DNA of 64,000 nucleotides from an uncultured Methanosarcinales archaeon (GCA_964587045.1 CAZPJY010000005.1:183-64182); one strand, 5' to 3'; counted from the stretch's first letter, positions 43,740 through 57,947 are shown. A program made the numbers and translations. The notes: generated by a model not told the origin, from the letters alone.

Positions 43740-44345
43740 ATGGGCGATTTGGTGATACTGGCGAAGTACCCGTTCCCCGGCGAGGTCAAGACGCGGCTCG
43801 CAGCTGACATAGGGGAGCGGAAGGCTGCCCGGTTCGCGAAGGCCATGCTCGACGACATGGTCGGCGTGGCCTCAGGGGTCTGCGAAGTGACGATAGCTGC
43901 CAGCAGGGGGGAGGCCCACCTTTTCAGGCAGGCGTACGACTGCAACGTCTGCGCCACCCCCAGGGGCAGCCTGCTCAGCAAGATATTCTATTCTGTCAGG
44001 GACAGGTATGTCAAGGGTGCTCAGGCTGTGGTCGCGATCACTGCCGACGTCGTCGTGAACGCAGACGAGATACGCGACTGGTTCTCGGTTCTCGAGGGTG
44101 GCGGCGTGCTGCTCGGCCCGACCTTCGACAACCTGTTCTACCTCATAGGCCTGGGCAGGAGGGGGGATGTCTTGGCCGACTCGGTATACAGGTCCATCAA
44201 GCGCGCGGGAATCCACATCCTAATGGACCGCCCGGGCATACACCTGGCTGCGAAGAAGCGCGACATCGACAGGCTCGACGACCTTTTAAGGACAGAGTTC
44301 CCCCCTGACTACCGTCGGACCCGGGAGTTGGTGAATCACTTGTAG
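43740..44345 (+). CDS. DUF2064/CofC-like nucleotidyltransferase-fold protein (TIGR04282-like, as I recall often associated with radical SAM/SelD-like clusters)
   Basis: MGDLVILAKYPFPGEVKTRLAADIG N-terminus characteristic of DUF2064. Confidence 0.55.
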   Translation: MGDLVILAKYPFPGEVKTRLAADIGERKAARFAKAMLDDMVGVASGVCEVTIAASRGEAHLFRQAYDCNVCATPRGSLLSKIFYSVRDRYVKGAQAVVAITADVVVNADEIRDWFSVLEGGGVLLGPTFDNLFYLIGLGRRGDVLADSVYRSIKRAGIHILMDRPGIHLAAKKRDIDRLDDLLRTEFPPDYRRTRELVNHL

Positions 44346-44605
44346 TAGTTCAGAACGCGCTCGATGATGATCGGCTTCTCCTCAGGGGTCACGAATCTGA
44401 CCTCGTAGGGCCTTTCCGGATCCAGCCAAGGGTGGCCCATGTAGCTTTCCAGCAGGCCTTCGAGCACGGAGCGCTTGTCCTCTCTGCCCCGGATATCCTC
44501 TGCGTACCTTGCAATGCAGAAGAATCCCGAGAAGTTGGCAGCGAGGCTCGAGCATTCCGCAGGGTACGCGCACTGCTCATCGCCCGGTTTGCACGATTTT
44601 GCCAT
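44336..44605 (-). CDS. small Cys-containing hypothetical protein
   Basis: 89 aa; CKPGDEQCAYPAEC. Confidence 0.35.
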   Translation of the reverse strand: MAKSCKPGDEQCAYPAECSSLAANFSGFFCIARYAEDIRGREDKRSVLEGLLESYMGHPWLDPERPYEVRFVTPEEKPIIIERVLNYYK

Positions 44606-44650
44606 TCTGTTAACGGAATGAAGGAGGGTATTTAATTGTTGTGACAGAAA

Positions 44651-45454
44651 TCAGCTTACGAAACCGTGCAGGATGTCAGATGGGTCCAGGAGGTCGAAAT
44701 CCTCGGCTCCGGGGTAGCCGACCTTACGCGCGTATTCCCACTCGAAGAGCACAGGCAGGCAGCTCCATTTCTTGCCTTCGATCTCGGAGGTGCAGTACGA
44801 GAGCGGCTCACGTATCACTGCCGCGTCGGGGAAGGCCTCCCTTATCCTCTTCTCCACTTGCTCGATCGGGCCTTGGTGGAGCTTGCAGCCCTGGCCCCTG
44901 CAGATGATGTTGTTGGTGGGCGTGCCGTCCTCCTGGACGTGGACGTCCTCGTCGTCGATGAGCATGCCTGTCACGGCGACCTGTCCGTCCTTCTCACAAA
45001 GCGCGTAAGCCCTCTTGGTGGCAGGCATGGATTCGAGCAGCTGCCTTGCCGCGCACTTCACGCCCCTCTTCTCCATCATTACCTCGTCTTCGTACCCGAT
45101 CCAGTGCAGGGACGTCCTCGGCTTCAGGCGCTCGTCGAACAGCCCCCTTGCGCTGGTCTTGTCCCTCACGCGGATGGGCTGCTTGAATAATGAGAGGGCC
45201 TTGTCCAGGTAGTCGATGCAGTACTCGTCAGAATACGGAGTGACGCATGCTATTACGTTTCCGTCGCTGCCGCATATACCAAATGAGAGGAATTCGTCGT
45301 ATACGAGGAGCGTGAACTGTGGTTCTCCCCTCTTCATGATCCCGAGCTCGCTCCTGAAGTCCTCAGACTGGGCGAGCGCACGGGTCCCGGCCAGATCATC
45401 CATCAGCGTGATCTCGACCTTCTCCTCCAATCTCAACTGCTCGTGGGTCATCAT
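44651..45454 (-). CDS. hypothetical Cys-rich protein
   Basis: 267 aa; TATA ttatatttaag 21-31 nt upstream. Confidence 0.45.
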   Translation of the reverse strand: MMTHEQLRLEEKVEITLMDDLAGTRALAQSEDFRSELGIMKRGEPQFTLLVYDEFLSFGICGSDGNVIACVTPYSDEYCIDYLDKALSLFKQPIRVRDKTSARGLFDERLKPRTSLHWIGYEDEVMMEKRGVKCAARQLLESMPATKRAYALCEKDGQVAVTGMLIDDEDVHVQEDGTPTNNIICRGQGCKLHQGPIEQVEKRIREAFPDAAVIREPLSYCTSEIEGKKWSCLPVLFEWEYARKVGYPGAEDFDLLDPSDILHGFVS

Positions 45455-45549
45455 CAGCCCTCACGGCGAAGAGGTTATATTTAAGCCTGGCCGAAACGCA
45501 TAATAATAACCTCCCCACTGGTTGCCCAAACCATAGTGAGGGGGTTATC

Positions 45550-46887
45550 TTGGACAGACTGCAAAGCATACTCAAGGATTACGATCTCAAGCTGGGCGAC
45601 CTCAGCAAAGAGTACCCAGACATCGTCGACGCGATCAAGACACGCGAGGAGGAGGGCAAGAAGATCAACCCCATCAAGCGTGCGCTCGTCCTGAGAGGGA
45701 CGCTCTTCAAGGACGGCGCGGTGCTGCTGGCCGACTTCACTGGGACGTTGCAGGGTAAGGACACCTCGAAGGTGATCGACACTCAGCCCCTCATCGGCAC
45801 CAGCTACAACCCCTTCAGGGCCAAGGTCAACGTCAAGGACTTGGACCCGATAGCCGCCGAGGCCTACAGCAAGAGGCTGCTCGACATAAGGCGCATGGAC
45901 GACGCGGCCATCGAGGAGCACGTGAAGCGTCAGGAGTTCGACTTTCCCCTGTGGTTCAAGCACCATCCTGACTTCTCGATGGGCAAGATCACTCACTTCA
46001 ACATGCCTTTCATCCTCCAGGTAGCGGGGTGCAACTTCCATGACGGCTCGGAGAGGGGAGGGTGCTGGTACTGCTTCGTCGACGACAAGTCAAACGACGG
46101 CAGGCCCGGCGAGGGCAAGGCTTACGCTGTGCCTGGCCAGGTTATCGACAGCATGGAGATGGCGCGGGGTAAGGTCAAGAAGATCTACGCCGAATTCAAG
46201 GGCGGCGAGTTCGCGGACTATCCAATGGACCTGCGCGTTCTCCGCGTATCTGGAGGCGAGCCTACAATAACCCTGGACTGGGTGCTGGAGGTGTGGAGGG
46301 AGATCGAATTGAAGGGCCTCGACTTCGTCGGACAGATCGACAGCAACCTCTCGACGGCCCAGGTGGTTGACAGTTTCGAAAGGGAGGGCATCTACGAAGA
46401 CAGCACTCTCGAGAAGCTGGCCTCGTTTCGGGCCGGCGGCCTTTCCAGGATAAAGGTGCTGACCGCTCTGAAGGGAACTGACAACGAAAACCTCGCTTCC
46501 AACGTCCAGTCCAACGCGACGATCGAGGACCAGCTCTACTCCATCACCAAATTCCTCAGGGCGGGCTTGGACATCTATCCCCAGATGTACAACCCAAACC
46601 CCCGGAGCCTGACTGAGTACCTGCATGCGATGGACGGCAAGATTAGGGACTTCTCGCTGCGCGTCCACGTGGGGCCGCTCAAGATGTACGGCCCAAACGA
46701 GTACCGCCTGCGCGTCGAGGCCAGGAGGCTGCACGTCGACGAGGACCGCTTCGTGGACTTCCACGGCAAGCTTTGGGACCTCACGTACGAGTACGGCTGC
46801 TCTGTCGTCGACAACTACCTCCGTGACGCTCACGGGGTCGGCTACAAGGACGCCGTCAGGAGCGACGTCGGGCTGAAGCTGCTCTAA
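45550..46887 (+). CDS. radical SAM-like enzyme with non-canonical Cx10Cx2C cluster motif; TTG start with GAGGGGG SD
   Basis: QVAGCNFHDGSERGGCWYCF plus glycine-rich SAM motif LRVSGGEPTI; 445 aa. Confidence 0.5.
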   Translation: MDRLQSILKDYDLKLGDLSKEYPDIVDAIKTREEEGKKINPIKRALVLRGTLFKDGAVLLADFTGTLQGKDTSKVIDTQPLIGTSYNPFRAKVNVKDLDPIAAEAYSKRLLDIRRMDDAAIEEHVKRQEFDFPLWFKHHPDFSMGKITHFNMPFILQVAGCNFHDGSERGGCWYCFVDDKSNDGRPGEGKAYAVPGQVIDSMEMARGKVKKIYAEFKGGEFADYPMDLRVLRVSGGEPTITLDWVLEVWREIELKGLDFVGQIDSNLSTAQVVDSFEREGIYEDSTLEKLASFRAGGLSRIKVLTALKGTDNENLASNVQSNATIEDQLYSITKFLRAGLDIYPQMYNPNPRSLTEYLHAMDGKIRDFSLRVHVGPLKMYGPNEYRLRVEARRLHVDEDRFVDFHGKLWDLTYEYGCSVVDNYLRDAHGVGYKDAVRSDVGLKLL

Positions 46888-47417
46888 CGGGCGGACTGGA
46901 GCCAACTGTCAAGAAGTCTGTGGAACTCGAGGGTGGTTTGGAGCTGCTCTTGGCCGTAGCATCTGTTGTTCCTGATGTACTCTATCCTCTGCTTCCTGGT
47001 CTCATGCACTACCTCATCCAATGGCCGTACTGCAAGAGTTGTGTCTGACGATCCGTCCCAGTCGTTGACATTGAATCCCAATTTTTCTAGTGGAGGATCC
47101 CAAGTCGCGTCGAGAAGCACCCATCCCCCCGAGATGTTAGCTTTGCATGCCAGGTGGTAGGCTAGGGGCATCCTCTCCGCGTGTTCAAGTAGGGTTCTGG
47201 GATAGTTGATGTCAAGCTCTTTCCATCTGAATGGGTAGGTCACCAGTAGGGTGCTCATTCCTTCTGATTCAAGGAGATCGCAGAGGTAGTAATGCTTGGC
47301 TGTGCACGAGCCCTTGTTACCCCTGAGCATCCTCGCAACCCGGTCGTCTTCCCTATCACCGGGTAAGGGTCCGAATGGGATGTCCCTAACTGTTTGGAAG
47401 GAGGTAATTAGGTCCAT
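46884..47417 (-). CDS. transglutaminase-like (Cys-His-Asp) domain protein
   Basis: GSCTAKHYYLCDLL ... ~45 aa ... AYHLACKAN ... GGWVLLDATW fits the TGase-like core spacing. Confidence 0.5.
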   Translation of the reverse strand: MDLITSFQTVRDIPFGPLPGDREDDRVARMLRGNKGSCTAKHYYLCDLLESEGMSTLLVTYPFRWKELDINYPRTLLEHAERMPLAYHLACKANISGGWVLLDATWDPPLEKLGFNVNDWDGSSDTTLAVRPLDEVVHETRKQRIEYIRNNRCYGQEQLQTTLEFHRLLDSWLQSAR

Positions 47418-47536
47418 GACGTGAGGGAGTCAGAAAGAAAATTTAAGGCTTTAGGATGAAAGATTTCCGAGAAATTACCGAAAAGTATTTAATAATCCCC
47501 TTTTTGTAACCACTTAATAGTGAAAAAAGTGATACC

Positions 47537-48589
47537 ATGCTACAATCATTCGACGAGGCAAGAAGGCTCTCAGACAGCTATGAGATCCCCTTATCCGACA
47601 TCCTATGTACAGACCTGAATATCACAGGGATAAGCCTGGCAAACCCCAAAGCCATGCAAAGGACCCGCTTCTCGATGAACCTCGATAACGAAAACTTATT
47701 CTTCGCAGTGACTGTAAACAGGAGGAGCGACTACAAGCACACAGGCGACTCAGTCTGGTTCAAGGAGATATTACTTGGGATGGCTAGCGACCCTGAGAAC
47801 GACACCTGCGACGACACATATTTCCGCAAGTCAGGCAAGGTGCTGACCCTGAACTCCAACAAGAAGAGCGCATGTTCGGGTTGTAAGTTCTGTGGTACCT
47901 ACAACCTCGACAAGGCAGAAGAACCGCTGACTACCAAGCCAGCGCTCACAAGAAAGATAGAGAGTCTGCTTTCAGAGAGCCGCAAGGATAACATGTCTGA
48001 TCTGGAAGCGATTGGTGTGGTCACGGGATGTTTCCCTGGCGAAGAAGAGGCTGTAGAACACCTCCTCATGGTCAGGGACGCCTTTGAGCCTTTCGGCTTC
48101 AAAGGTGAAGTGATTTACATAGGATCCCAGATAAGGAGAGAGGAATCGTTGGACGCCCTTGTTTCATCAGGACCCTTCGGTCTCTATCTCACTGTGGAAT
48201 GTTTCACGAGGAGGGAGCAGCTGATGAATCCTAAGAAAGCATCGCTTACCCTTGAGAGAGGGCGTGAGCTCCTGGATCTTGCGAAGGGCAAGGGTATCAA
48301 TACAACTTTCCTCTATATACTCGGACTCGACCCCATCGAATCTATCTTCGACGAGATTCCCGAGTACCTTCCAGTAGTCACCAGGCACCCAATAATAAAT
48401 GTCATGCAGGCCTACGTGCCGGAGCAGGAGGCGCTCCGCCATCCCTCTGCGACGAAGATTGAGTACTACCTGGAATCGAGGGGGCTTATCGAGATACTCT
48501 TCTGCAGCTCGAGCCTAGTCCCCAGGAGATGGGAAAACTACCGCAGTCCGTGGGTCACTAAATATGGAGGTAGGGTCCTTGATATATAA
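47537..48589 (+). CDS. radical SAM-like (TIM-barrel-type) protein with Cx2Cx2C motif
   Basis: NKKSACSGCKFCGTYN; downstream pattern GEVIYIGSQIRREESLDALVSSGPFGLYLTVECF...GINTTFLYILGLDP resembles radical-SAM barrel strands. Confidence 0.45.
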   Translation: MLQSFDEARRLSDSYEIPLSDILCTDLNITGISLANPKAMQRTRFSMNLDNENLFFAVTVNRRSDYKHTGDSVWFKEILLGMASDPENDTCDDTYFRKSGKVLTLNSNKKSACSGCKFCGTYNLDKAEEPLTTKPALTRKIESLLSESRKDNMSDLEAIGVVTGCFPGEEEAVEHLLMVRDAFEPFGFKGEVIYIGSQIRREESLDALVSSGPFGLYLTVECFTRREQLMNPKKASLTLERGRELLDLAKGKGINTTFLYILGLDPIESIFDEIPEYLPVVTRHPIINVMQAYVPEQEALRHPSATKIEYYLESRGLIEILFCSSSLVPRRWENYRSPWVTKYGGRVLDI

Positions 48590-49745
48590 CACGGTCAGCG
48601 ATGAGGTAGATCTGTCATCTAGATATGCCTGCGAGGTGCTAAAGGAGAACGGGGTCGACTTCGCAAGCGGGGTGCCTTGCGGTGTTCTCCGGCACTTCAT
48701 CTCGTACTTTGAAGCTGATGCGCAGATGCAACTCCTCCCTGCACAGAACGAACCAGAGGCGGTAGGCATCGCAGCAGGAGCCTACCTAGGAGGCAAGACT
48801 CCTCTGCTTTACATGCAGAATTCAGGAATGCTCAAAGCTACCAACGAGTTTGGTTCCCTGCTGATACCATATAAGATACCTGTGGTTTCAGTCGTGACCT
48901 TCAGGGGATGCGAAGGCGAGGATGCTCCACAACACTTCACAACTGGCGGGATAACAGTGTCACTCCTCGACGCACTCGGTATATACCACAGCGAGCTTGA
49001 AGAGGATTTAATCAGGGAGACTATCGGTGATGTCATGGATTGGAGCAGGTCGAACAGCATGCCCTCAGTCCTGCTGATCAAGAGAGGCTGGTCGTCAAAA
49101 AAGGAGGAATCGGACAGCAAGGAGCACGAGCAGGACGAGCTCGAGAGTCAGCCCACGCAGACCAAGGATTACCGAAACGGCAAGTCCTCAATGAAAAGGG
49201 AGGATGCTCTTGATGTCATCGCCCGATCCACAGGTGCGGATACTGCAGTCTTCGGCACCACTGGTCTGATTAGCCGCTCGCTCTACGAGAGGCATGACAG
49301 CCCCAACTTCTTTTACAATACAGGGGGCTTTGGTTTGGTGTCCTCGATTGGGCTGGGATTCGCCAACGCGCAACCCTCAACGCGGGTAATCATCGTCGAC
49401 GGGGATGCGAGCTTGCTGACGAATCTCAATACCCTGGTCACCATCGGTTGCAACAAGCCATCCAACCTCGTCCATGTCGTCTTAGACAACAAGGCCTACG
49501 CGTCGTGCTCTGAAGAGGGATCATGCTCACGTCAGGTCGACCTGTCATCCTTTGCTGAGGTGGCTGGCTATAAATCTATCTTTCGGGTCGACGATACGCA
49601 GTGTCTGGCGCGAGCCATGACCGAAGGCAGCGGGCCGAAGTTCGTGCACGCCGAGATTGGGCTGGGCGGAAGGAGGGATTTTGCCAGACCCAAAGACCTG
49701 GCGCATATCGCTCGCAGGTTCAAAGGGCATTTCAGCAACCAATAA
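48564..49745 (+). CDS. fused sulfopyruvate/phosphonopyruvate decarboxylase-like ThDP enzyme (ComDE/Ppd family)
   Basis: N-terminal GVDFASGVPCGVL (ComD-like), C-terminal ThDP motif IVDGDASLLTNLNTLVTIG. Confidence 0.7.
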   Translation: MEVGSLIYNTVSDEVDLSSRYACEVLKENGVDFASGVPCGVLRHFISYFEADAQMQLLPAQNEPEAVGIAAGAYLGGKTPLLYMQNSGMLKATNEFGSLLIPYKIPVVSVVTFRGCEGEDAPQHFTTGGITVSLLDALGIYHSELEEDLIRETIGDVMDWSRSNSMPSVLLIKRGWSSKKEESDSKEHEQDELESQPTQTKDYRNGKSSMKREDALDVIARSTGADTAVFGTTGLISRSLYERHDSPNFFYNTGGFGLVSSIGLGFANAQPSTRVIIVDGDASLLTNLNTLVTIGCNKPSNLVHVVLDNKAYASCSEEGSCSRQVDLSSFAEVAGYKSIFRVDDTQCLARAMTEGSGPKFVHAEIGLGGRRDFARPKDLAHIARRFKGHFSNQ

Positions 49746-49771
49746 ATAGGTGCGGGACCTACCTCCATTCC

Positions 49772-50425
49772 ATGGCCGGATGGGACAGGATCTACAAGGA
49801 GAAGGGGACATCTTACGACTATTACGACATAGTCGGGACGCCGCACGAGTCGATGCCCAAAGTCGCGGCATTCCTCAAGAAGAGCAAGGCCAGGAGGGTG
49901 CTCGACCTCGGATGCGGAGCGGGAAGGAACCTGATCTATCTCGCAGGGAGGGGCTTCGAAGCCTATGGGGTTGACAAGGCGCCTGAAGGCATCAAGATCG
50001 CCAGGAGGGCATTGTCCGAACGGGGTCTCAGGGCCGGGCTTAAGGTCGCCGACATGTTCGAGCGCCTCCCCTACCCTGACGGATTCTTCGACGCGGTCGT
50101 GGCAGTCCAGGTGCTGCAGCACGGCACCGAGGCCAGGATCAGGAAGGCCATCGCCGAGCTGGGGAGGGTGCTGAAGCCGGGAGGCGTGCTCTTCGCAACT
50201 CTGTCAGGCAGGGTCGCCAACGGCAAGACAAGGTACTGCCTGGTCAAGACCGCAAGGCGCGTGGCGCCCAACACGTTCGTCCCGCGGAAGGGAAGCGAAG
50301 CCGGGGTGACGCACTTCATCTACAGCAGGGAGAGGATCAAAAAACATTACAGGGACTTCCGAATAACCAATATCTGGCGCGACAGCAAGGGGTACTACTG
50401 CTTCCTGGGCGTCATGAAATCATAA
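49772..50425 (+). CDS. class I SAM-dependent methyltransferase
   Basis: RVLDLGCGAGRN motif I, VVAVQVLQH, LKPGGVLF; start by codon arithmetic (49601+171). Confidence 0.8.
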   Translation: MAGWDRIYKEKGTSYDYYDIVGTPHESMPKVAAFLKKSKARRVLDLGCGAGRNLIYLAGRGFEAYGVDKAPEGIKIARRALSERGLRAGLKVADMFERLPYPDGFFDAVVAVQVLQHGTEARIRKAIAELGRVLKPGGVLFATLSGRVANGKTRYCLVKTARRVAPNTFVPRKGSEAGVTHFIYSRERIKKHYRDFRITNIWRDSKGYYCFLGVMKS

Positions 50426-50470
50426 CTTTTTTATTTCTGGAGATTCCCATGCCTGAGGGGGTGAGCAAAC

Positions 50471-51442
50471 ATGAAGCTGGGCAAGCTTCCGATAAACCTG
50501 CTGGAGGAGGAGCTTAGGAAGATCAAGATCCACCACGACGACGTGATCCTGGGCCCGAAGGTCGGCGAGGACAACGCTATTATCGACTTGGGGGACCGCT
50601 ACATGGTGGTCGCATCGGACCCGATAACCGCAGCGGCAGAAAACATCGGCTACTTTGCGGTGCACATCAACGCAAACGACATAGCTGTGGCAGGGGCTAA
50701 GCCCGCTTACATGGCGGCAGACATACTCCTGCCGGAGCACGCCGACGCGGAAATGGCGAGGGAGGTGTTCTCGCAGCTGCGCAACGCCTGCGATGATATA
50801 GGGGTGTCGCTCGTCACAGGCCACACCGAAAAGTCGCCGGGGCTCAAGAATATCATAATCGCATCGACCATGTTCGGGTTCGTGCCAGTGTACATGCAGG
50901 TGACCACCGGCGGCGCGGAGGAGTTCGACGACATACTGGTCACCAAGTCTGCAGGCCTCGAGGGAACTGCTATAATAGCGAGCGACTTCGCAGAGAGGCT
51001 CGGCTTCCTCTCAAAGGACGAGATCGAAGAGGCGAAGGGGTACCTGAAAAGTTTTTCAGTGCTCCCCGAGGCGCGCATCGCGGCCGACTACGGGGTGACA
51101 TCCATGCACGACCCTACAGAGGGCGGCATCGCGAACGCGCTGCACGAGCTTTACCGCGCATCAGGCGTCGGCGTGTGGGCGCTGCTCGACCTCGTGCCTG
51201 TCACGCCCTTGACTGAAAAGATCTGCAGCCACCTCGAAATCAACCCTTACGGCCTGCTGTCATCAGGCATGCTCCTTGCGACCTGCGAGCCGTCCAAGAC
51301 CAAGAGCCTGAGGGCCGCTTGGAAGGATGCGGGGATAGAATCGACTGTCATCGGCCACATGGAACAGGGAGGGGTGCGTCAGCCCCACGGCAGGAAGCTG
51401 CCCTACTTCCGAAGCGACGAGCTGTGCAGGCTCTTCGAATAA
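50471..51442 (+). CDS. AIR-synthase-related (PurM/HypE/SelD-like) ATP-dependent enzyme
   Basis: GPKVGEDNAIIDL, VVASDPITAA, VSLVTGHTE; 323 aa. Confidence 0.7.
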   Translation: MKLGKLPINLLEEELRKIKIHHDDVILGPKVGEDNAIIDLGDRYMVVASDPITAAAENIGYFAVHINANDIAVAGAKPAYMAADILLPEHADAEMAREVFSQLRNACDDIGVSLVTGHTEKSPGLKNIIIASTMFGFVPVYMQVTTGGAEEFDDILVTKSAGLEGTAIIASDFAERLGFLSKDEIEEAKGYLKSFSVLPEARIAADYGVTSMHDPTEGGIANALHELYRASGVGVWALLDLVPVTPLTEKICSHLEINPYGLLSSGMLLATCEPSKTKSLRAAWKDAGIESTVIGHMEQGGVRQPHGRKLPYFRSDELCRLFE

Positions 51443-51476
51443 TCTTTTTATATTACAATCTTTTTCCCCCGCCCCA

Positions 51477-52124
51477 ATGTTCCCATACACGAATATAACC
51501 TTGGTTGGCACCTGCCACGACGACCCGATGGGGCCTGAACGCCTCAGGACCCTTCTCTGCTTTCTGAGCCCGGACATACTCACCGTTGAGGACTCGCCTG
51601 GTCTCCGTAGGCTTGATGGTGCCAATGTGATGCGGGCACGCGACATCCTGATCGGGATGGGTTGTGAGCCCGGCCTGGTCGAGAAGGTGCTGGCCAAATA
51701 CGGCGTCTACGAGCCTGGGGTGTGCTCGGACTTCGCGAAACGCGAGGGGATCCCAACCTACGATGTCGACCTCCTCGTCCCGCGGACCAGCTGGCTGGTG
51801 GAGAGCGAATCACTCGATGAAGGCAGGCGTATCTGTGACTCTGATCTCATCGCTCATTTGGAGTATGAGTGTGAGGTCGGGAACGCCTACAAGAGATGGG
51901 TCATCGACTTTATCAACGAGACATTGCCCACTTTGGACGAGGACCGCGACTGGCACATGGCAGGAGAGATAGCGCGGCTCGCGTACCTGAATCCGGAAAA
52001 GCGCATCGTCCACGTGGGCGGAGCCTCCCACATGTATCCCAACAGCAAGAGACTCACCCTGGGCCGGATGCTGCCCTTTGCGGAGGTGCGCATGCTCGAC
52101 GAGGCCGACAGCCTCTACCGGTAG
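51477..52124 (+). CDS. TraB/GumN-family-like protein
   Basis: NITLVGTCHDDP...PDILTVED resembles TraB LVGTAH...PDxVxVE. Confidence 0.4.
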   Translation: MFPYTNITLVGTCHDDPMGPERLRTLLCFLSPDILTVEDSPGLRRLDGANVMRARDILIGMGCEPGLVEKVLAKYGVYEPGVCSDFAKREGIPTYDVDLLVPRTSWLVESESLDEGRRICDSDLIAHLEYECEVGNAYKRWVIDFINETLPTLDEDRDWHMAGEIARLAYLNPEKRIVHVGGASHMYPNSKRLTLGRMLPFAEVRMLDEADSLYR

Positions 52125-54375: not shown

Positions 54376-55794
54376 TCACTTGCGCAGCAGCCACGAGCCG
54401 CGGAACCAGTCCTGCCTCTTGCCGTTAGCGTCGCCGTTGCGGTCGAGGAAAGCGAGTCGGGGCAGCATGGGGCGCATCGAGAACCCCAGCGGGCGGTGAA
54501 CGAGTACCTCGTAGAACAGGCGGCCTTCCTCGACTTTTTCGTGGTTACCGATGTCGCGCACCCGTGGTAGTAGCACGGCCGTCGAGAGCACTCGCAGGCA
54601 TGAGGATATGGCGAGGATGATGAGCAGCGTCCACAGCGCGCTGGTGCGGCCCTGCAGTAGCAAGGACAGCCCGCTTCCGGTAAGGCCGCCCACCATGACC
54701 GCGAATCCGAAAGTGACTGCGTAGTTGGCGAAAAGCTTGGTGCGGGTGCGCTTGCTCGACGCCTCGAGCATGTAGTTGAAGGTGGTAAGCTCCAGGCCCG
54801 CCCAGGCGAAGCCACTGATAGTCTCAGCAGCAGCGAGCACGAGGAAAGCCGCGATGCCTGAAAGCGACGATGCGATTACGACCCAGTATAAAGGTATCAG
54901 CGAGACAATGACTGACGATACCTTGAGAAGGTTCTTGTTGCCGAACACCGAGGTGAGGCTCCCCCAGTAAGTCATGGTCAGTGCCTTGATCAGCACGGGG
55001 ATCAGCACGACGATGCTGTACTGCAGGTATGAGAACCTGAGGTGGGTGAGCATGATGATGGCGAAGAACGGGGCTGAGACCATCACAGCGAAGGCGAGCA
55101 CCGAGCGGAACAGGGCGAAGCTCCCGAAGGCGGTCTTGGGCAGCTCGGCGATGAACTCCCGGAAGCCTGAGTGGTTGTAGACGTCTGGCAGGAAGGGGGG
55201 CTCGTAGTGGCGGGTGAACAGCAGGAAGGATACGAACCTGCCGGTGAGGGCGAGCAGGAAGAGGATGCCGAACGCCACCCACACATCTGGCACGAAGGTG
55301 AGGATGAAGCCGCTTGCGATAATCGATGAGAGCAGGAAGAGGAGGGTGACGCGGTTGCGCTTGCCGAAGTACGTACCACGCTCGCCTGCGGGGATAACGT
55401 CGCCGATCCACGACGACCACGGCGGGCCGGCGATGTTGCCGAAGACGAGGTAGAGCGAGAATATACAGGTGAGCGCCCACACGCTTCTCGTGAATAGCGG
55501 CAGGAGGAAGAGGGGCGCAAACGACAGTGATTGCAGCAGCACGAAGATGAGCACCAGCTTCTTCCGCTCCTGCAGCTTCTCTGTCAGGCGCGCGCCGAGC
55601 AGCTGGAAGAGTGAGCCCAGGAAGAACGGTCCTGATGAGAGGAAGGCGATCTCGGCGTTGCTCGCGCCGAGCCGCAGGGCGAAGGGGACCACGTACTGCT
55701 CGCCGCACCCCATCATCACGGAGGCGGCGCTGCCCTCAGCGACCGAGCATCGTTTGGTGCGTTGAACCTCCTCCCTTGTAAGCTCTCTCCTCAT
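54376..55794 (-). CDS. MFS transporter
   Basis: 12-TM-like hydrophobic profile, 472 aa, typical MFS loops (GKRNRV, GRTSA). Confidence 0.8.
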   Translation of the reverse strand: MRRELTREEVQRTKRCSVAEGSAASVMMGCGEQYVVPFALRLGASNAEIAFLSSGPFFLGSLFQLLGARLTEKLQERKKLVLIFVLLQSLSFAPLFLLPLFTRSVWALTCIFSLYLVFGNIAGPPWSSWIGDVIPAGERGTYFGKRNRVTLLFLLSSIIASGFILTFVPDVWVAFGILFLLALTGRFVSFLLFTRHYEPPFLPDVYNHSGFREFIAELPKTAFGSFALFRSVLAFAVMVSAPFFAIIMLTHLRFSYLQYSIVVLIPVLIKALTMTYWGSLTSVFGNKNLLKVSSVIVSLIPLYWVVIASSLSGIAAFLVLAAAETISGFAWAGLELTTFNYMLEASSKRTRTKLFANYAVTFGFAVMVGGLTGSGLSLLLQGRTSALWTLLIILAISSCLRVLSTAVLLPRVRDIGNHEKVEEGRLFYEVLVHRPLGFSMRPMLPRLAFLDRNGDANGKRQDWFRGSWLLRK

Positions 55795-55835: not shown

Positions 55836-57947
55836 TCACTCTTTCATGGAGGCCGGTCTCCTGCGCGCGACCGCTGCCGGCTGCTCGAGACTGATGCCTG
55901 AGCGCTGCGCTGCCGCGTTCAGTACGGCAAGGATGATGTCTTCGTAGCTCATGCCTGCGGAAAAGCAGGAGCGCGGGAAGCGGGAGTTCTCGAGCGGATC
56001 GGGCATGAGGCCCGGCAGTGCGTTGACCTCGATCACGTTGGGCACGCCTCTCGAGTCCAGACGCATGTCTATCCTGCACAGGTCGCGCATGCCTAGAGTA
56101 TGGAAAGCGCGCATGGCAGTGTCGCGGATGCGCTGCTCTAGCTTCCTATCCAGCCTGGCAGGGCAGACGAGCGGGTCGACTCCTGGCACGTCATACTCCC
56201 ACTTGGCCTCGTAGCTGTCAAACCTGTGCATGCCCTTGGGCAGATGGTCGAACGTCACCTCGACGATGGGCAGGACTTTGGGAGGGTTGCCCAGCATCGG
56301 CACCGTGAACTCGCGGCCCTCGAGGAACTCCTCGACGAGTGCGGGCTGTCTGTAATCGCGTATGACCCCGGCGACCTTGCGCTTGAGCTCCCTTGGGCTG
56401 AAGACGAGCGAGTCGTTCCTGATGCCCTTGCTCGAGCCTTCGGAGTTGGGCTTGACGATCAGCGGGAAGCGCAGCTCTGCGTCGAGCTTGTCGCCTGCTG
56501 AGACAAAGGTCTGGTGCTTAGGGGTCGGGATGCCTGCCTGCGAGAGCACCGAGCTGGTCAGCGCCTTGTCAAGCGTGAGGGCGAGCGCCATCACTCCTGA
56601 ACCTGTGTAGGGGATGCGCAGCATCTCGAGGATCGCCGGCACGTGGCTTTCGCGCGCCTCGCCGTGCAAGCCTTCCGCTAGGTTGAAGGCGATGTCGAAC
56701 GCGCTCTTCCTGAGCCGGTCGTAGATGCGCTCGTCAGCCTCTACCAGCGTGGCTGAGTGGCCGTTCCTATCGAGCGCCTGCTTGATGGCCAGCGGCACCG
56801 AGATGTCGTCGAACTCTGCGTAAGCGTCCTTGGGCATGCCTGCTGGAGCCGCGCGCTTCTCATTGTAGATGATCGCCACTTTCAGCCCTGACGGGCTTCT
56901 CTTCCTCGGGTTGGCGTACTCGACCCTCCTTCCCTCGAAGTTCCTGAGCACGAATTTCCGCTCGTCCTTTGCGGTCACGAACTCTGGCAGGATGGGGATC
57001 TTTCCACCGCCAGGAGCGTCGATTACGTACTGCGGGATCGCGAGGCCTGATGTGAAGCCGTAGAGATCCTCCATTATCTTGAGCCCATCCTGGACCGACG
57101 TCCTGAAGTGCTCCGTGCCTTTGACCTGGTCTGCCTGGTAGAGGTAGTAAGGCCGGACCCTGTTCATGAGCAGGCGGTGGAACAGCTCCTTGAGCACCTC
57201 GGCGTCGTCGTTGACGCCTTTAAGCAGCACCGACTGGTTGCCCAGTGGTAGTCCCGCGTCTGCGAGCAGCTCAAGCGCCCCCTGGCTCTCGGGAGTGAGC
57301 TCGCGCGGGTGCTCGAAGTGGACGTTGACGTAGAGCGGCCTGTACCTGGCAAGCATCGATGCGAGCTTCTCGGTTACGCGCATGGGGAAGGTGCAAGGCA
57401 CCCTCGTCCCGATACGGATGATCTGCAGGTGCGGGATGGCGCGCAGGCGTTTTAGGATGGACTCGATCTCGCTGTCGGAGAGCATGAGCGGGTCGCCGCC
57501 TGAGAGTATGACGTCCCTCACCTCAGGGTGGGCTGCGACGTAGTCTATCGCGTCCTGGATGTGCGCCGGGGTGATCTCGACCTCGCGTCCGACCTTTCGC
57601 TTGCGCGTGCAGAACCTGCAGTACACCGCGCACCTGTTGGAGACGAGCATCAGCACGCGGTCTGGGTAGCGGTGCACCAGGAACGGCACTGGGGTGTACT
57701 GCTCCTCGAGCAGGGGGTCCTCGTCGTTCTCATTGTCGTTGAGCTCCTCGGGGTCTGGTATGCACTGCTTCCAGATGGGGTCGCCCTTCTCCCTGATCAG
57801 GCCCTTGTAGTACTCGGTCACCCTTACGGGGTAGACTCGGGTCACCTCTTTTTTAGAAAGCGCGATTTGTATCACCTGTTTAGTATGAGAAGAAGGTTGG
57901 AAGGTCACATCCGCCGCGGGGCGTCCAGTGGCCTTGCGGGATTCCAC
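55836..57947 (-). CDS. fusion of lysine 2,3-aminomutase-family radical SAM enzyme (KamA-like) with a D-Ala-D-Ala-ligase-type ATP-grasp domain
   Basis: VHRYPDRVLMLVSNRCAVYCRFCTRKRKVG (CxxxCxxC, KamA signature context); C-terminal half with ATP-grasp motifs ...EEFLEGREFTVPML...IEVNALPGL. Confidence 0.8.
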   Translation of the reverse strand: MESRKATGRPAADVTFQPSSHTKQVIQIALSKKEVTRVYPVRVTEYYKGLIREKGDPIWKQCIPDPEELNDNENDEDPLLEEQYTPVPFLVHRYPDRVLMLVSNRCAVYCRFCTRKRKVGREVEITPAHIQDAIDYVAAHPEVRDVILSGGDPLMLSDSEIESILKRLRAIPHLQIIRIGTRVPCTFPMRVTEKLASMLARYRPLYVNVHFEHPRELTPESQGALELLADAGLPLGNQSVLLKGVNDDAEVLKELFHRLLMNRVRPYYLYQADQVKGTEHFRTSVQDGLKIMEDLYGFTSGLAIPQYVIDAPGGGKIPILPEFVTAKDERKFVLRNFEGRRVEYANPRKRSPSGLKVAIIYNEKRAAPAGMPKDAYAEFDDISVPLAIKQALDRNGHSATLVEADERIYDRLRKSAFDIAFNLAEGLHGEARESHVPAILEMLRIPYTGSGVMALALTLDKALTSSVLSQAGIPTPKHQTFVSAGDKLDAELRFPLIVKPNSEGSSKGIRNDSLVFSPRELKRKVAGVIRDYRQPALVEEFLEGREFTVPMLGNPPKVLPIVEVTFDHLPKGMHRFDSYEAKWEYDVPGVDPLVCPARLDRKLEQRIRDTAMRAFHTLGMRDLCRIDMRLDSRGVPNVIEVNALPGLMPDPLENSRFPRSCFSAGMSYEDIILAVLNAAAQRSGISLEQPAAVARRRPASMKE

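Follow-up and report, generated by a model that had tools for sequence, protein, structure and literature searches.

A radical-SAM-fold protein of an unnamed family is an almost obligate neighbour of thiamine diphosphate enzymes in archaea, bacteria and plasmids

Within a 64,000-nucleotide stretch of DNA (the window) from an uncultured Methanosarcinales archaeon (GCA_964587045.1, CAZPJY010000005.1:183-64182), the region 43740-52124 contains a gene, here called X350 (47537-48589, plus strand), encoding a radical S-adenosylmethionine (SAM)-fold enzyme of a new, small and unnamed family with an invariant CxxCxxC motif. X350 is an almost obligate neighbour of a thiamine diphosphate (ThDP) enzyme; together with a methyltransferase and, as a rule, a phosphatase, the two make up a module that is both conserved and mobile. 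In our reading, the functional unit consists of three to four genes, namely X350, a ThDP decarboxylase resembling phosphonopyruvate decarboxylase (Ppd), a SAM methyltransferase and the divergent gene o177, and we assign this unit, acting by the mechanism proposed below, a probability of about 50%. An initial annotation of the region had described seven genes on the plus strand (45550-52124) as one operon and one biosynthetic cluster. A conserved gene set without an assigned pathway does exist here, but it is smaller and more widespread than that annotation supposed, and the seven-gene reading is too broad.

All open reading frames (ORFs) named in the initial annotation were present where it had placed them, and the cysteine motif it had read in X350 was confirmed as C113-x2-C116-x2-C119, invariant in 91 homologues together with C165, with C91 nearly invariant. 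The AlphaFold2 model of X350 (predicted local distance difference test score 94.6) showed the radical-SAM (beta/alpha) barrel, with the CX2CX2C motif in the loop that follows the first strand of the barrel, between the strand of residues 102-105 and the helix of residues 134-148. The canonical CX3CX2C spacing is missing, and CX2CX2C occupies the equivalent loop. The structurally nearest enzymes were the radical-SAM enzymes HydG, LipA, MqnE, PylB, NosL and ThiH, which share the barrel and the three cysteines after its first strand; sequence identity to the solved enzymes was 8-16%, and, unlike them, X350 carries an N-terminal domain of about 100 residues for which no match was found. Non-canonical cluster spacings are tolerated in proven radical-SAM enzymes, such as CX2CX4C in ThiC, CX5CX2C in HmdB and CX14CX2C in QueE; our literature search found no report of a CX2CX2C spacing in a radical-SAM core.

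Sequence comparison placed X350 outside the named families. The window protein gave no match to PF04055, and sub-threshold matches to this model were obtained at E<=0.1 for 67 of the 91 family members, the best at 1.3e-07. No Pfam or NCBIfam family covers X350, and RefSeq labels for its homologues were limited to "hypothetical protein" or "radical SAM protein". The family profile retrieved no solved radical-SAM sequence from the PDB at E<1, and nothing meaningful came from PDB sequence searches in which X350, ORF 45550, o177 and o215 served as single-sequence or profile queries. The homologues, 35-52% identical and distributed in DPANN archaea, Candidate Phyla Radiation (CPR) bacteria and Firmicutes, form a small family with 361 representatives at E<=1e-3 among 1.84 billion proteins; no phage record with X350 was found. 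A distant sister family (about 130 bits) was represented at L150:342-1517 (P0327), after two tiny ORFs and before ScmC-like and deaminase genes; this context resembles that of ribosomally synthesized and post-translationally modified peptides, is unlike the X350 module, and was judged uninformative for it.

To determine the partners of X350, its profile was run against 185,579 species genomes, which gave 60 loci, or 63 with three earlier ones, and these loci were searched with the proteins of the window, a neighbourhood being defined as the 6 kb around X350. A ThDP enzyme was present in 57 of the 63 loci. It was a Ppd-like decarboxylase in 28 loci, from DPANN and CPR organisms, and a phosphoketolase-like protein of about 660 amino acids in 29, from gut Firmicutes including Sellimonas intestinalis and from Treponema lecithinolyticum; among the six loci without a ThDP enzyme, three were truncated contigs. 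Most loci also contained a phosphatase of the HAD (>30 loci), PHP (22) or PTP (5) type. An orthologous methyltransferase was found in 21 loci, with three methyltransferase copies in some (L012, L075), and a GrpB gene in 20. Homologues of o177 occurred in 11 of the 63, all among the 28 Ppd-type loci, and in three metagenome loci. A new family of about 150 amino acids, Y150, occurred in 13 loci and is absent from the window; it is marked by the motifs FSGIGI, DLRPN and LHDGF, gave repeated sub-threshold matches to the diadenylate-cyclase (DAC) domain, and was seen both as a separate gene (L050:9512-9970, L057:11128-11598, L064:11136-11681, L027:9496-9948) and fused to a methyltransferase (L017, L028). 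Several of the contigs (L006, L010-L012, L020, L021, L023, L024, L026) are titled "uncultured Methanosarcinales" or "Pseudomonadales", although their gene content and X350 relatives look like DPANN or CPR; these titles of metagenome-assembled genomes are probably automatic taxonomic mislabels.

About 18 metagenome loci and four plasmids extended the survey beyond the 63 loci. X350 homologues with 31-34% identity were carried on annotated plasmids with the same ThDP-enzyme pairing. In Clostridium perfringens (30 records), the module was located on mobilizable plasmids of 70-75 kb, in a run of genes encoding ABC-2 transporters, a BtrH-N protein, an adenylate-forming enzyme, ACP, a HAD hydrolase, an adenylation-domain protein, X350, a phosphoketolase-family protein, a PHP protein and a methyltransferase. 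The plasmids of Streptomyces, Mycobacterium intracellulare and Nocardia farcinica carried X350, an enolase-superfamily protein, a HAD hydrolase, a phosphoketolase and a methyltransferase, to which GGDEF, NUDIX, Fe/2OG or further radical-SAM genes were added in some runs. The plasmid loci L153 (NZ_CP075936.1), L154, L155 and L156 sit within apparent secondary-metabolite clusters.

The ThDP enzyme of the window (48564-49745, plus strand) is a fused ComD/ComE-type protein, as the initial annotation had described it, and its gene shares 26 nt with the 3' end of X350; overlaps of 17-26 nt between X350 and the Ppd-like gene were also found in L004, L007, L009 and L016. Both TPP_enzyme_N (28.1 bits) and TPP_enzyme_C (40.7 bits) were above cut-off, and G280-D281 and N309 of the GDG...N motif were conserved. 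The best family matches were the phosphonopyruvate decarboxylase model TIGR03297 (270.4 bits, cut-off 312.5) and the ComD/ComE models TIGR03845 (105.9 bits, cut-off 147.95) and TIGR03846 (121.5 bits, cut-off 221.5), and the closest solved structure was the Ppd RhiEF. These matches would suit a conventional Ppd role in phosphonate metabolism, or a ComDE role in sulfonate metabolism of the coenzyme-M type, with X350 as an unrelated neighbour and with pepM or comABC located elsewhere in the genome, of which the analysed sequence comprises 64 kb; but all three scores fall under the curated cut-offs. The two-domain architecture is that of ComDE, including split alpha/beta versions in some loci, whereas the hosts of the module are DPANN and CPR organisms instead of methanogens, and no comA/B/C-like neighbours were recognised beside it.

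The distribution of phosphoenolpyruvate (PEP) mutase, PepM, also bears on this alternative. In the PEP mutase-Ppd pairs (RhiEF, Fom2, AepY), the decarboxylase likewise lies immediately downstream of, and tightly coupled to, the presumed substrate-supplying gene, and the window decarboxylase has the residues that bind the cofactor, and a number of basic residues, in common with these enzymes; the window and related loci differ in lacking PepM and in having a radical-SAM enzyme as the partner. The PepM signature EDKx5NS was missing from every frame of the window, in agreement with the initial annotation, which saw no PEP mutase there, and it was not found within 5-10 kb in any X350 locus. Scanning of metagenomes with the Ppd-like profile gave 80 loci. 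Sixty Ppd-like ORFs with 39-62% identity to the window protein all adjoined X350, except three on truncated contigs (L081, L099, L112). Among the Ppds with 30-35% identity, 28 lay directly downstream of an ORF with EDKx5NS and none of the 28 was near X350; because the same pattern found PepM beside these 28 genes of the other clade, the test works. Across about 90 Ppd loci, X350 and PepM were mutually exclusive partners. A third arrangement, present in seven loci, consisted of split PpdN-PpdC, followed by a different, second-family methyltransferase and then X350. The window's ThDP enzyme is a member of a distinct, PepM-independent clade of the Ppd/ComDE family, with at least 39% identity within the clade and 30-35% to the PepM-linked Ppds. 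The adjacency to X350 is kept across archaea and bacteria and so is not due to chance, and we regard an ordinary Ppd or ComDE pathway as very doubtful.

The residues of the two Ppd clades allow some statement about the substrate. E63, R114, H124, R212, R238, H304 and the GDG..N motif are shared by both clades, while nine positions show fixed differences between the X350-linked and the PepM-linked enzymes, for example C315/T and E318/Q. Because the shared residues are kept and the nine fixed positions differ, the pattern would fit a related but different anionic 2-oxo acid as the substrate of the X350-linked Ppd.

In the mechanism that we propose for the module, the precursor would carry a phosphate or another anionic group and could be, for example, a C3 phospho-acid, a sugar phosphate or a nucleotide. 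X350 would attack it with a radical derived from SAM and so create or expose a carbonyl; in this archaeon, this step would give a 3-substituted 2-oxo acid. The ThDP enzyme, which is translationally coupled to X350, would then irreversibly break the adjacent C-C bond, here by decarboxylation to a substituted acetaldehyde and, where the partner is phosphoketolase-like, by ketol cleavage. The methyltransferase would subsequently modify the product, which the phosphatases would dephosphorylate in other organisms. Since GrpB, the DAC-like protein, GGDEF, NUDIX and PHP are among the companions, there is a hint from gene content that the precursor may be a nucleotide or a sugar phosphate. A GrpB domain, which we take to have a nucleotidyltransferase fold, was also fused to the N-terminus of X350 in P0231, P0238 and P0241 (L152).

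Several observations weigh against this proposal. The order of the steps and the nature of the substrate were inferred from gene context alone. SAM binding by X350 is putative, and the protein reads T163-G164-C165 where the GGE motif usually sits. In the DPANN loci L048, L057 and L064, the 6 kb around X350 contain no ThDP enzyme, and the methyltransferases in the loci of Clostridium and actinobacteria are not orthologues of the window enzyme. Because the same radical-SAM family pairs with two unrelated ThDP folds, X350 could also work at a step later than the ThDP enzyme instead of an earlier one, or could target that enzyme or its cofactor. The PurM-like gene and o215, described below, may or may not participate in this organism.

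The pairing with two unrelated folds is also the starting point of an alternative in which X350, instead of supplying the substrate, would serve as a maturase of the ThDP enzyme, would modify thiamine diphosphate itself, or would capture a ThDP-bound C2 intermediate. ThDP chemistry is the sole feature common to the Ppd-like and phosphoketolase-like partners, the translational coupling suggests a complex, and the PurM-family gene downstream in the window has ThiL-like similarity. However, this gene does not accompany the module elsewhere, and the regular methyltransferase and phosphatase companions suggest a small-molecule pathway. Among 150 representatives, GrpB-X350 proteins were the only fusions found and none joined X350 to a ThDP enzyme; as we also know of no precedent for such an activity, we consider this alternative unlikely.

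In another alternative, X350 would replace PEP mutase itself by forming a carbon-heteroatom bond through radical chemistry, giving a 3-substituted (phosphono-, arsono- or sulfo-) pyruvate; the decarboxylase would pull the reaction forward and the methyltransferase, of TehB/ArsM-like type, would methylate the heteroatom. X350 indeed holds the place of PepM, directly before the decarboxylase gene, which it overlaps and with which it shares the strand, and the mutual exclusion with PepM and the residues kept in common with true Ppds point in the same direction. The window methyltransferase (49772-50425, plus strand; 217 amino acids) passes several class I SAM-methyltransferase Pfam models, as the initial annotation had expected, with Methyltransf_25 at 81.8 bits, and its weaker specific matches were to the metalloid and chalcogen methyltransferases TehB, ArsM-like and TPMT; the three methyltransferase copies in L012 and L075 may be read in the same way. 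On the other hand, we know of no precedent for the formation of a C-P bond from phosphite or phosphate by a radical-SAM enzyme, this alternative leaves unexplained why half of the loci have phosphoketolase-like, enolase-like and phosphatase partners, and the nine fixed differences from true Ppds favour a different substrate. On balance, replacement of PepM appears quite improbable. Arsenosugar and selenium-related readings, which drew on sub-threshold family similarities alone, were set aside and are kept only inside this alternative. The PADLOC defence models gave nothing but generic methyltransferase similarity.

The layout of the window is consistent with a unit that begins at X350. The plus-strand operon of seven genes described at 45550-52124 contains only six plus-strand genes and is interrupted by o177 (46884-47417, minus strand; 177 amino acids), which the initial annotation had missed. 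Because this minus-strand gene lies between the two radical-SAM-like genes, a plausible transcription unit is 47537-52124 and not 45550-52124. Between o177 and X350, which are divergent, is an AT-rich intergenic region of 119 nt (47418-47536) with a TATA-like element, TATTTAATAA, read directly some 40 nt before X350 begins; to judge from the sequence, this region is the probable promoter region of both genes. For the methyltransferase, the most likely start codon is the ATG at 49772, 26 nt past the stop of the decarboxylase, and not the GTG at 49601 given by mechanical ORF calling. The gene o177 gave no Pfam, NCBIfam or PDB match, but it is a real gene, because homologues were found in 11 related genome loci and three metagenome loci. 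Its protein has an invariant Cys38/His88/Asp103 pattern resembling the triad of thiol enzymes, and on this motif alone it may be transglutaminase-like.

Two further genes follow the methyltransferase in the same direction. The PurM-like gene (50471-51442, plus strand) begins 45 nt past it, and its protein matched AIRS (66.6 bits) and AIRS_C (58.4 bits) above cut-off, in agreement with the initial annotation. The protein was closest to HypE and ThiL (hypE 108.6 vs 251.6 bits; thiL 92.8 vs 184 bits; PDB HypE match at 1.6e-18) and was below cut-off for the HypE, ThiL, SelD and PurM equivalogs. The gene was missing from every other X350 locus examined; it is not a conserved partner and may be a lineage-specific accessory. 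The ORF at 51477 (o215; 51477-52124, plus strand; 215 amino acids) starts 34 nt past the PurM-like gene. It had been called TraB-like, and by eye an N-terminal "GTCH" and a C-terminal "GGASH" hint at TraB/PrgY/GumN without proving it, but the family profile was not matched: Pfam gave nothing even at E<=10, NCBIfam, PADLOC and the PDB gave no match, and only the self-match was found among 5.8 billion proteins. This ORF is either a lineage-specific orphan or not a real gene. The two genes may be local additions that are co-transcribed with the module here.

Upstream of o177, ORF 45550 (45550-46887, plus strand) is a genuine radical-SAM gene with a core like that of pyruvate formate-lyase (PFL) activase, but it is unrelated to the module and lies outside it. 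It has the radical-SAM barrel, the cysteine triad and the GGE-type SAM motif, and the residues read in the initial annotation, C161-x10-C172-x2-C175 and SGGEPT (234-239), were invariant in 54 homologues; PF04055 gave 19.1 bits, under the cut-off of 29.5. The GGEPT motif is shared with the PFL activating enzyme, whereas the Cx10Cx2C spacing, an extra N-terminal segment of about 150 residues and one of about 60 residues at the C-terminus differ from it, and no glycyl-radical enzyme gene is nearby. Assignment to the archaeosine enzyme RaSEA was considered and set aside, as NCBIfam gave no match. The family, of about 400 residues and 50-60% identical across DPANN archaea, stands alone among housekeeping genes in these genomes (including L001, L002 and L066-L069) and was never found near X350. 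In the co-localization check that the initial annotation had proposed, X350, the ThDP enzyme and the methyltransferase recur together whereas ORF 45550 stands alone, which, for the latter gene, counts in part as the refutation which that annotation had foreseen.

The DUF2064-like gene (43740-44345, plus strand) is likewise an unrelated neighbour. It is a distant relative of the family to which it had been assigned, but scored below threshold (PF09837 25.2 vs 25.8 bits; TIGR04282 72.6 vs 134 bits), and it is not just upstream of the other genes, as had been stated, since two minus-strand ORFs without Pfam or NCBIfam matches (44336-44605 and 44651-45454) separate it from them. No homologue of ORF 45550, the PurM-like gene, o215, the DUF2064-like gene or these two minus-strand ORFs was found in the 63 X350 loci. 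A single pathway containing ORF 45550, X350, the Ppd-like enzyme, the methyltransferase, the PurM-like protein, o215 and the DUF2064-like protein can be argued from the five co-directional genes of 47537-52124, which have gaps of at most 45 nt and may be co-transcribed, and from the possibility that a CofC-like or PurM-like enzyme is a non-orthologous substitute for the GrpB and DAC-like partners seen elsewhere. The absence of four of its genes from all other X350 loci examined, the solitary position of the ORF 45550 homologues in DPANN genomes, the minus-strand gene, convergent with ORF 45550, that separates it from X350, and the lack of any homologue of o215 all oppose it, and we regard the single pathway as extremely unlikely.

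The flanks of the window contain housekeeping or unrelated genes, including PFK, NUDIX, an MFS transporter and adenine deaminase; a gene for the Rpr2 RNase P subunit is also present in the 64 kb and marks the sequence as archaeal, and no tRNA or Rfam match was found there. A third radical-SAM gene (55836-57947, minus strand) encodes a lysine-2,3-aminomutase-like protein (Radical_SAM + LAM_C) fused to an ATP-grasp domain of the D-Ala-D-Ala-ligase type and adjoins the MFS transporter; together with 54376-55794 (minus strand), it may constitute a beta-lysine ligation system.

The locking of a radical-SAM enzyme to a ThDP enzyme is a pairing of known superfamilies that was not found described in the libraries or literature searched; searches on the gene combination, CX2CX2C radical-SAM proteins, Ppd/ComDE in CPR and DPANN, GrpB with radical-SAM and phosphoketolase genes, pepM-independent Ppd and the C. 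perfringens plasmid cluster returned nothing relevant. This pairing recurs in DPANN archaea, CPR bacteria, gut Firmicutes, an oral Treponema and the mobilizable plasmids of Clostridium perfringens, Nocardia, Mycobacterium and Streptomyces. The X350 family, whose CxxCxxC is a putative variant of the radical-SAM signature, escapes screens based on CX3CX2C or on the Pfam threshold. In the ultra-small symbionts, automatic annotation can be expected to label the decarboxylase as phosphonopyruvate or sulfopyruvate decarboxylase, which would point to phosphonate or coenzyme-M pathways for which the evidence gives no support. If X350 did replace PepM, DPANN and CPR organisms would have a second, PepM-independent route to phosphonate-like compounds, invisible to pepM-based surveys. 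Since cultured carriers and plasmids exist, the chemistry of the module is open to direct examination.

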